DNA of 64,000 nucleotides from Amoebidium appalachense (GCA_963693365.1 CAVNZM010000017.1:5570708-5634707), one strand, 5' to 3'. Counted from the first letter of the stretch, positions 37,701 to 40,700 are shown. Notes: a model not told the origin generated them from the sequence alone. Made by a program: numbers and translations.

Positions 37701-40700
37701 GGTGAGTTTTGATTTTAGTTGTGATTTTTTTTTTACTTATATATATATATATATATATATATGTAGGGTGAGGGGGGGGGGGGGGGGGGGGGGTTGAATG
37801 CGTCAAAAAGTACGAAGTACACAAGAACAAACGGATAACACAATGCAGGATGCAAGCCATACATAAAGAGTATGCATAATGAGCAGAGCCCATCCTCAGG
37901 GGGGGCCCACGTCATCCACATTACCCGAGTTTCGACCTATTCACCTCGTTAACGAAACCCAACTCAGGTACTGTTTCACTTGAACATGGGTAGGTCACCC
38001 GTCTTGATCAGAGACGAGCAGGGTTGCTTATGCAGGCAAGGGCAGTGGGAAAGGCCGGGGGTTAAAGTTGCAGCAGTAAGCAGAAGCAAGAAAAATATTG
38101 ATAGGAACTCAGGAGACGGGGCTTCTAGGAAGCTCCCCCATCGCTACCTAAGTCGATACTTCCCTGGCTAACATACTACACCAGCTGAAAAGAATTAAGT
38201 CCCGAAGGCCGCAGAATCCGCAATCAGAGGGGGAAATATGATATTTGACCCACGCCGCAGGTAGTAACACGCTTACTAGGGCGGAACTTTAACGTCTTCG
38301 AACGGAAAGCTATGCCCCCGGATGTCAGCCAGAAATATGGTGTCACCCGTTGCTTTGGGCTTGAAAAAAGCCAAATCGATAGTCCGAGTTATGTTACGCC
38401 GGCGGGTAACATGCCGCATGGGTTCCAAGGGAGCTGTCGCCAACAGAGCGGTGTGTGCATGCGTGTGCGTAACGCAATGTGTGAAGCGTGTCTATAGCTA
38501 TGAGAGGGGGTATGCAGAAGTGGACAGATGAAGTGTGTGGAGAGAAGAACAGTAGGAAGAAAAGTAGACACCGGTGTGTGCAACCCCGCACAACATACAT
38601 ACACACACACACACACACATAAATAAGCGAATATTACAGGTAATCAACCAGAACAACAAACGATAAGCAAAACAACAGGCGCTCCCCCCCCCCCCCCCCC
38701 CCCCCCCCCCCCCCCCCCAAAAAACAGAGAGAGAGAGAGAGAGAGAGAGAGAGAGAGAGAGAATAGGGGGGGGGGGGGGGGGGGGGGGGGGATGTATGCA
38801 TTAGAGGGTTGGAAATACGGTGGAACGACACCAAGACAAACCACAAAAGCGTCACAAAATGGGCTGGGCCGGGGGGGGGGGGGGGAGGGGGGGGGCAAGG
38901 GAATATGTCACGCACACCACTGTGAACACAGAAGAAGAACAAGAATCGATGCACAGAAACAACCCACAAAACCACATAGGCAGGCACCTTGGTGTGCGGG
39001 TGGATGTGCTTGTGCCTGTGCCTGTGCCTGTGCCTGTGCCTGTGCCTGTGCCTGTGTGTGCTTCCGGATATGGGGCAGGAGTGGGGGAAAAAGGAAGGGG
39101 GAAGAATTTCCCTAGGAAAGGGAGAGGGATTTGGCTAGAGGTCAACCAAGACATACCGTCTGACCAGAGAGGGTACGACCACTCTTATCGACAATAGTCC
39201 CCGAGATGAAGATGGGTTGGCGGGGATATTTGCCCGAATCAAACAGCTGATCGATGGCAAACAGAGCGGCTTTGGCGTTCAGAGTGTCGAAAATGGTCTC
39301 TACGAGAAGAACATCTGCACCTCCATCAAGAAGACCGCATGCCTGTACGTGTGTGTGTGTGTGTGTGCGTGTACGTGTGTGTGTGTGTGGGGTGGTGGTG
39401 GGGAGGGGGGGGGGGGGGGGGGGGGGGGGGGGGGGGGGAGGAAGGAGGATGGGGAGGGAGGGAGGGAGGGAGGGAGGGGGAGGGGGGCTTGTGCAAGAGC
39501 AGGTGTGTTTACATTCATAGGTGTGTGCACGTACGAATCAATCTCATTATGTGTTTGCACACCCTCAAACTTAGTACACGTACGTGTAGCACCCACGTCA
39601 CGTTCTGTGCGTGTGTTCTCGTCTTCCTGTCATACACGTGCATAAAAGTGTACACAGACACACATGTAATTGAATGGACACATACACGCGCGCGCGCGCG
39701 CATACATGCACGCTTAAGCACACACAGTCGCGTGCACACGTTAATGCACACACAAACACACGTACTAACACTCACAACCGCAAGCATACCCGCACACGCA
39801 CGCACACACGTACATACATTCACACACACACACACACACACGTACACCCATCTACACACACACACACACACACACACACGTACACACCTGCTCCGTGTAC
39901 GCCGTCACCAGCTCCTCAAACGTGCAATTTCTGAACCCAGGGTTCTCCACAGAGGGGGAAATCGACAGAGTGCGATTGGTGGGGCCCAGGGCGCCTGCCA
40001 CATAGCACTTACGTGAGGGGTTTTCCCTCATGACGTCATTACATGCCCTCTTGGCTAGAGCCGCTGATTCTTTGTTGATGCGGTACGCCTGTGTGTGTGG
40101 GTGTTGGGGGGGGGGGGGGGGGGGGGGGAAGGGGGAGGGGGGGAGGGGGGGGGGGGTGGGAGGGGGGAGGTTAGAATGTGTTATAGAGTAGAATATATGC
40201 ATTCGTGTGTGTGTATGTTTGGGGGGGGGGGGGGGGGGGGGGGGGGGGAGGATGGAGGAAGAGAAGAGCGGAAAGAGGGGGAGGATGGGTGGGTGGGGGG
40301 TGGGGGGGGAAAGGGGGGTGAGGGGGGCAGGTGGAAGAGGGAGGAGGGAAGGGAAAATGGGGGGAGGGATGAGGGGGAAAGAGGGAGTGTGAGAAGCGTG
40401 GAAGGGGGAGAAGGGGAACGGAGGGAGGGGAGGTGAAAAGGGAGAAGGATCTTTGGTGTGTGTGTGTGGGTGTGTGTGTGTGTGTACGTGTGTGTGGTGT
40501 GTGTGTGTGGGGGGGGGGGGGGGGGGAGGGGGGGGGGAGGGAAGGGGTAAAAGGGGGAAGGGGGTAAGAGGGCGGAACTAGTGTGTGTGTGTGTGAACGT
40601 GGTGTGTGTGTTGTGCGGGGGGAGGGGGGGGGGGGGGGGGGGGGGGGGGGGGGGGGGGGGGGGGGGGAGGCGCATGCGTGTCCACCTGCGTGCACGCAGG

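Follow-up and report, generated by a model that had tools for sequence, protein, structure and literature searches.

The intron of a cobalamin-dependent methionine synthase gene of Amoebidium appalachense contains a repeat in which an earlier note had recognised the parts of a hammerhead ribozyme in an unusual order, raising the questions of how such an RNA could be assembled into an active form and which element it belongs to. We analysed the window of 64,000 nt around it, and all coordinates without another prefix are positions in this window. The repeat holds all hammerhead core bases, ordered as stem II 5' strand, cleavage strand, GAAA and CUGAnGA, and we consider it likely that a Penelope-like element carries this RNA at its 3' end as a self-cleaving ribozyme, for which a head-to-tail dimer is the predicted active form (probability about 0.6).

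The window sequence is eukaryotic and rich in (CA)n and poly-C, and the repeat was found 14 times at E < 0.01 by BLAST and HMM searches. Copy A1 (37794-38100, minus strand), consisting of the structured domain and a 3' tail that ends in CATTCAA before poly-C, lies in the intron of the minus-strand methionine synthase gene, of which the one exon tested had best matches of 56-69% identity, mainly to fungi, holozoan protists and animals. The whole structured domain is also present in A2 (14977-15247, minus), which has an intact core, poly-C on both sides and an intronic position in a gene whose translation was judged by eye to be fibrillarin-like, and in B1 (29996-30300, minus), likewise with an intact core. 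Three copies are 5'-truncated, namely B2 just before stem II (40907-41134, minus), C1 within the palindromic hairpin (29523-29695, minus) and A3 (26441-26639, minus), and the remainder are 3' fragments, including a subfamily A fragment inserted at the poly-C end of C1 (29425-29519, minus) and two B-like fragments (27374-27514, minus; 23465-23570, plus, sense to a plus-strand host gene). The copies share a common 3' end, stop at poly-C and often start after poly-C. Five window copies reach both core halves, and the core is intact in four of these and decayed in A3. All 14 matches are in sense orientation to host genes, which we do not count as evidence since the poly-C runs are strand-biased too. 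The repeat family is abundant, as 6630 and 7531 contigs matched A1 in two DNA runs, depth giving no copy number, and head-to-tail joints of the repeat were seen in the sequencing runs.

Along the minus strand of A1, the domain opens with ATAAGCA and then CCC (38021-38031), the 5' halves of the outer helices by which the A9/G10.1 break is closed, followed by a CUCG...CGGG hairpin (37998-38018) with the palindrome TGATCA in its loop (38010-38005), a G before it and a bulged U after it. This hairpin separates the closing helix from G10.1. Next comes the stem II 5' strand (37991-37996, G10.1 being 37996), apart from CUGAnGA and followed by the 5' strand of helix 'I', a distal extension (37984-37990), by block S with a stem III strand, the GUU triplet (37963-37961) and the stem I GGG (37958-37970), by the stem I-stem II linker with a perfect 10-nt palindrome (37946-37955; a different 10-mer in B, 30187-30178) and by block G with the stem II 3' strand, GAAA (37933-37930) and the other stem III strand (37922-37939). 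The 3' strand of helix 'I' (37906-37912), the stem I CCC with CUGAGGA, C3 to A9 (37893-37902), and a U after A9 leading into the 3' strands of the closing and outer helices (37879-37892) complete the domain. Stem I pairs GGG 37960-37958 with CCC 37902-37900, stem II 37996-37991 with 37939-37934 and stem III 37970-37962 with 37930-37922. The core contains CUGAnGA, GAAA, an NUH triplet and the pairs G10.1-C11.1 and A15.1-U16.1, and by analogy the cut would be expected between 37961 and 37960. The positions which the earlier note had assigned to GUU, GAAA and CUGAGGA (37899-37893) on the minus strand were all accurate, and its identification of these parts as a hammerhead agrees with the core bases and the compensated stems I-III found here. 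It had also named ATAAGCA/TGCT(T/C)AT as the stem closing the RNA ends; a helix does close the A9/G10.1 break, but the direct closer is CCC 38023-38021 paired with GGG 37891-37889, and ATAAGCA/TGCT(T/C)AT lies outside it.

The stems vary between copies in a compensated fashion, as had been proposed, and B1 differs from A in this way in stems I, II and III, its stem I being located where previously placed (30194-30191 with 30133-30130). In stem I, the window provides one compensated pair (A versus B) and the metagenomic homologue L132 another, and the Naiad elements discussed below have unrelated stems. In stem II, the sequences are GACCU/AGGUC (A), GACCC/GGGUC (B), GACUA/UAGUC (L132) and GACAA/UUGUC (L165, a second homologue), giving three Watson-Crick pair types at each of two positions and no mismatch among these four. 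The copy A3, previously cited by its position 26435 for the stem GACCCA/TGGGTC, does have this stem (26638-26633 with 26580-26575), but its core is decayed, with GUGAGGA and AUU and with stems I and III broken. When the 14 pairs of closing helix, hairpin and stem II were scored in five sequences, 98.6% of the cells paired, and changes on both sides were seen in 7 of the 14 pairs and in 3 of the 3 closing pairs. Slid controls reached 29-53%, and none of 500 shuffles was as high as 98.6%, a count which is not readable as a probability because the five sequences are related. Stems I and III were outside this test, since MAFFT misaligned block S, and were read by an anchored script. In the sequencing runs, variants at 37992 and 37938 made up 4.3% and 3.2% of the depth in one DNA run and 3.2% and 4.2% in the other; the data are unphased, and such matching shares are what a compensated stem II pair would give.

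Subfamily C allowed an out-of-sample prediction. C1 is without the upstream half, which was predicted before the contigs were examined, and loose ends at the truncation point were then found in three of four runs (28, 28 and 3 contigs), carrying an 11-bp stem III with several compensated pairs versus A and B, followed by GUU (with U17) and GGG. A 4-bp hairpin with CGCGCG in its loop follows the GGG, and the stem II 5' strand lies beyond the 30 letters shown. The fourth run, X13, had 0 contigs on C1, which is not proof of absence. The CUGAUGA of C1 (29637-29631) differs from the motif of A and B at N7, the only CUGAnGA base that differs among A, B and C. At position C3 (29637), a U made up 42% of the depth (3 contigs) in run X19, guessed to be RNA, and less than 1% in two DNA runs; these contigs may be unrelated. 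In run X15, contigs stopping at 37959 were considered as a sign of cleavage and dismissed as an assembly effect, the stop being exactly 30 bases from the common variant 37989.

Homologues were sought with motif patterns, and motif-only matches were filtered for a stem III of at least 6 bp and a stem II partner of at least 5 bp. All four pattern matches in the window passed, as did 2 of the 117 metagenome loci listed but none of 67 viral motif matches; since these loci come from about 390 stretches, an estimate, further members are possible. The two that passed, L132 and L165, are homologues with the same layout and different compensated stems. Their core invariance is circular, since the search pattern demanded the core; both also carry the upstream signature missing from that pattern, namely the stem II 5' strand preceded by G, the CUCG...CGGG hairpin and U, and both have the closing helix directly after A9-U. 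L165 also has, about 22 nt upstream of its actual CUGACGA segment, an almost identical copy of it (L165:345-381). Family-specific patterns gave no metagenome match and one viral match, a chance one, and the other three-block pattern matches, 2 viral and 7 from prokaryote genomes, were all without block S. Rfam returned 84 matches over the whole window, none of them a ribozyme. The Rfam hammerhead search suggested earlier did yield a partial Hammerhead_1 match, comprising only stem II and GAAA with the same strands paired, but at 14.2 bits against a threshold of 34 it did not reach the gathering score, in line with the expectation that standard descriptors miss the split form; L132 and L165 had no Rfam hammerhead match.

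The order cleavage strand, GAAA, CUGAnGA had been put forward as new, but it is already published as type SGC (order S > G > C), for which the excerpted text of Eckert et al. (2023, PMC10085705) gives 583 sequences and in vitro rates of 0.007-0.19 per minute, together with type CSG (two metagenomic sequences only) and one GCS. Likewise, the distal extension pointed out before is present, but is known as helix 'I' in the same excerpts. The window repeat resembles SGC and CSG in cyclic block order, core and a helix 'I' joining stems I and II at their outer sides. In contrast to SGC, its block C is not intact, being cut at A9/G10.1 with the gap bridged by closing helix and hairpin, and unlike in SGC and CSG as excerpted, both strands of its helix 'I' connect to stem III. 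The claimed break between A9 and G10.1 was upheld, as stem II has its covarying partner upstream and a different strand pairs with the nucleotides that follow A9. This break and the move of the stem II 5' strand to the front are what is new compared to type SGC. The six possible orders derive, in the excerpts of Eckert et al. (2023), from the assumption that stem I-CUGAnGA-stem II is interrupted by at most 1-2 nt, which the split RNA breaks because its catalytic strand is interrupted between A9 and G10.1. Since the split form contradicts the rule used to enumerate permutations, descriptor searches missed the class in thousands of genomic contigs. Its circular order also differs from the S > C > G of types I, II and III (Rfam CL00010), and we classify the split form, on its sequence features, as a conserved variant of a known ribozyme class and not as a new class. 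SGC came from metatranscriptomes and CSG from metagenomes, with only one GCS in known genomes (PMC10085705, as excerpted), whereas the split form occurs in eukaryotic repeats.

Two other hammerheads invite comparison. The minimal type I hammerheads of Penelope elements, which cleave as dimers and cut poorly in vitro (Cervera and de la Pena, 2014, PMC4209133, in excerpt), share with the split form a Penelope-like host, an extra nucleotide between A9 and G10.1, an expected two-copy activity and palindromes. They have the canonical order and a palindromic stem III swap according to the same excerpt, whereas the split form has a long intramolecular stem III and its partner would supply CUGAnGA. 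The PK hammerhead (Zhan et al., 2024, PMC11300833, in excerpt) similarly uses a long-range helix as stem II and has an extra helix near the core; its A9, G10.1-C11.1 and G12 lie in a short stem whose loop makes the pseudoknot, and the excerpt describes no A9/G10.1 break. Our literature search, with subscription papers mostly outside its range, found no description of an A9/G10.1 split or of permuted hammerheads in Naiads, and no report of an active hammerhead whose A9 and G10.1 are more than 1-2 nt apart.

Naiads are a group of Penelope-like elements reported to be without canonical hammerheads, some of them flagged 'HHR_core' or 'HHR_half_core' (Craig et al., 2021, PMC8557442, in excerpt). 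In the supplement of that paper, we inspected by eye the sequence around each of the 81 CGAAAC hits as well as eleven 3' ends, with record names derived from the next header and the metadata order; such a reading mostly misses motifs with other bases at 15.2 or split by line ends. Of the 54 Naiad consensus records, 8 showed the split layout near the 3' end (Bfor, three coral records, 2_Movir, Plae, Obim and Ovul). All eight have helix 'I' and individual stems I-III, and in each of them a closing helix and a hairpin-U precede G10.1. Closing helix and hairpin-U were clearest in the coral, box-jelly and octopus elements, and stems I and II of one coral record contain a mismatch each. Seven further records, six from nematodes and one from a spider, hold type CSG with helix 'I' on the same reading. 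The layout was equivocal by eye in the flagged records 3_Dst and Esco, nothing was seen in the last 600 nt of Dcar, and the CGAAAC hits excerpted for Chlamys and Hydra included no split layout. The split layout offers a testable answer to the Naiads' seeming lack of hammerheads, and type CSG now has a host element, in animal genomes that are named. Two distant Naiads without GAAAC share a second conserved motif of the 3' UTR, which starts with CGGGTGAC, has its end near ACACCTGAT and is possibly another structured RNA.

The window repeat probably represents the 3' end of a 5'-truncated Penelope-like element with a (C)n target. It shows 5' truncation, head-to-tail tandems, microsatellite targets and a putative ribozyme near the 3' end, and we make this assignment because its 5' truncation, tandem joints and (C)n flanks match the description of Craig et al. 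(2021), in excerpts of which elements with an N-terminal EN have 5' truncation, (C)n targets and tandem insertions. Such features are shared with Naiad and Chlamys, (C)n targeting being named there for the Chlamys group (PMC8557442, as excerpted). No Penelope ORF linked to the window's own copies was found. In L165, an ORF begins 170 nt after the motif and is identical to the start of the protein P0125 (1293 aa, 7 cluster members), in which DKG, motif A, an MG-SP motif B, YIDD and a thumb-like end were recognised by eye, motifs that we take to be typical of Penelope-like reverse transcriptases. Residues 600-1293 of P0125 scored 0.94-0.97 in the atlas to unnamed and HTH_animal/RVT_1 clusters, and the whole protein scored 0.89-0.91 with a weak recognition of 2218 (below 2300). 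P0125 had no Pfam or PDB match, no GIY-YIG domain was shown, a search in viruses gave no loci, and the AlphaFold model (pLDDT 30) has an unusable fold. A Cys/His-rich insert, possibly a zinc finger, lies at about 920-975 between RT motifs B and C. Upstream of A1, unique sequence extends 5' as far as about 38560 on the minus strand, and it contains a short protein-like frame without a homologue found (38090-38560, minus); its reading as a restriction-like endonuclease gained no support (0 Pfam matches, 0 homologues and 3 matches to giant repetitive proteins). A single 776-nt contig of run X17 reaches 471 nt beyond 38110.

How the separated core halves could meet is suggested by the predicted folds, in which stem III and helix 'I' form a rod with a paired middle in A2, B1, L132 and L165; a private change tips the predicted fold of A1 away from the rod, and folding programs place CUGAGGA in a local hairpin in A1 and B1. 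Since the rod is tied on both strands, its two ends hold different parts of the core, namely the cut site with GAAA on one side and CUGAnGA with the 5' half of stem II on the opposite side. The model that we rate best, and somewhat favour overall, is a symmetric head-to-tail dimer with two composite active sites. A head-to-tail dimer was one of the two assemblies suggested in the earlier note, and the evidence in its favour is indirect. Each molecule would fold into the rod, whose top, bearing GAAA (G12) and the GUU site, would meet the bottom of the partner rod, which would contribute CUGAnGA (G8) and the 5' half of stem II. Two composite sites would arise in this way, and each RNA would be cut after GUU. 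As transcripts of Penelope-like elements are tandems with one copy at each end, two copies would meet and release unit-length RNA, and lone truncated intronic copies would remain mostly uncut, by analogy with the dimeric Penelope hammerheads. Full copies keep an uncut site, which implies that their templates were uncut or rejoined. A fully strand-swapped duplex was discarded by reasoning, as it would not bring the core halves together, and pairing between the hairpin loops fits L132 and L165 but, by eye, not B.

The dimer is the best model because the links in some Naiads appear too short for a monomer by a crude estimate. Helix 'I' and stem III are joined by 0 nt on one strand in coral, acanthocephalan and box-jelly Naiads, with a crude reach of 35-41 A against a need of 42-62 A, so a single Naiad molecule should not close its own core, although this ruler may be too strict, as Eckert et al. 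(2023, in excerpt) noted SGC members with a 0-nt link and left the geometry open. In the window copies, linkers of 6-15 nt would be long enough on the same estimate (reach 70-95 A, need 48-62 A) if the rod middle melts, and SGC and CSG RNAs are cleaved during transcription and treated as cis-acting (PMC10085705, in excerpt). An active monomer with several pseudoknots, in which the rod middle opens and the palindromes are incidental, is accordingly the strongest competitor, but we consider it rather unlikely given the zero-nt links of three Naiad lineages, the paired rod middle in the four predicted folds, two length classes and 10-nt palindromes in three lineages. The rod-spanning strands sum to 44-45 nt in three lineages and to 65-67 nt in five, classes about 11 bp or one helical turn apart, of which the search pattern favoured the long one. 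Perfect 10-nt palindromes, different in A, B and L165, occupy the stem I-stem II linker with predicted homodimer gains of 9-15 kcal/mol, such 10-mer palindromes being present in one of the 67 viral matches and, with L165's own, in four of the 119 from metagenomes; L132 and C have 6-mer palindromes only, common by chance, and the Naiad versions have none in the linker.

Less probable still is a repeat of hammerhead descent whose present role is structural, as a signal in reverse transcriptase binding, dimerisation or 3'-end protection, with negligible cutting without protein. This would be consistent with the poor in vitro cutting of the Penelope minimal hammerheads, with the uncut site kept by inserted copies and with the CUCG...CGGG-U insert and the bases after A9, which are conserved equally with the core in A, B and C; against it, all intact copies across distant hosts retain the catalytic bases, NUH and G10.1-C11.1 even as their stem sequences change. 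A chance assembly of motifs in a hairpin-rich repeat might be suggested by the commonness of rods and short palindromes and by the A1 folding z-score of only -0.37, yet it is highly improbable in view of the prediction borne out by subfamily C, homologues with independent compensations and empty null sets. Equally remote is an HDV-like ribozyme, a class with its catalytic C in J4/2 and a nested double-pseudoknot order. A segment of B resembles the J4/2 strand, but only B has a C at the would-be catalytic position (U or G in subfamily A, U in subfamily C), the motif order is incompatible, and Rfam gave no HDV match.

On the dimer reading, we are slightly inclined to a wider proposal, namely that the split form represents a seventh natural hammerhead topology outside the six, opened at A9/G10.1 and working only as a symmetric dimer with whole-turn spacing, and that together with CSG it would be the overlooked ribozyme of Naiad and other Penelope-like elements, counting two terminal repeats. 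A ribozyme predicted to need both halves from two molecules bears on the unit-length cutting of Penelope-like RNAs and on host tolerance of sense-strand intronic copies, and is relevant to RNA engineering as AND-gated cleavage.

The window contains further features of other kinds. Near-identical LINE-type reverse transcriptases (Pfam RVT_1) lie at 5180-6640 and 20368-21669 (minus), the second copy 5'-truncated; the first was considered as the repeat's enzyme and set aside, having no link to it. Part of a methionine synthase exon end is duplicated upstream of C1 (29720-29900 versus 30370-30450), and tandem copies at 2292-2615 and 3575-3862 (minus) encode a small, cysteine-rich protein that looks secreted. 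At 45010-53040 (plus), ORFs split by introns carry DUF6729 and a 3'-5' exonuclease domain and look to us like a large Zisupton-related DNA transposon. Finally, a short repeat at 49603 (minus) and 51332 (plus) ends in CCTTAGCAACCCC before poly-C, which suggests that more (C)n-targeting families exist.
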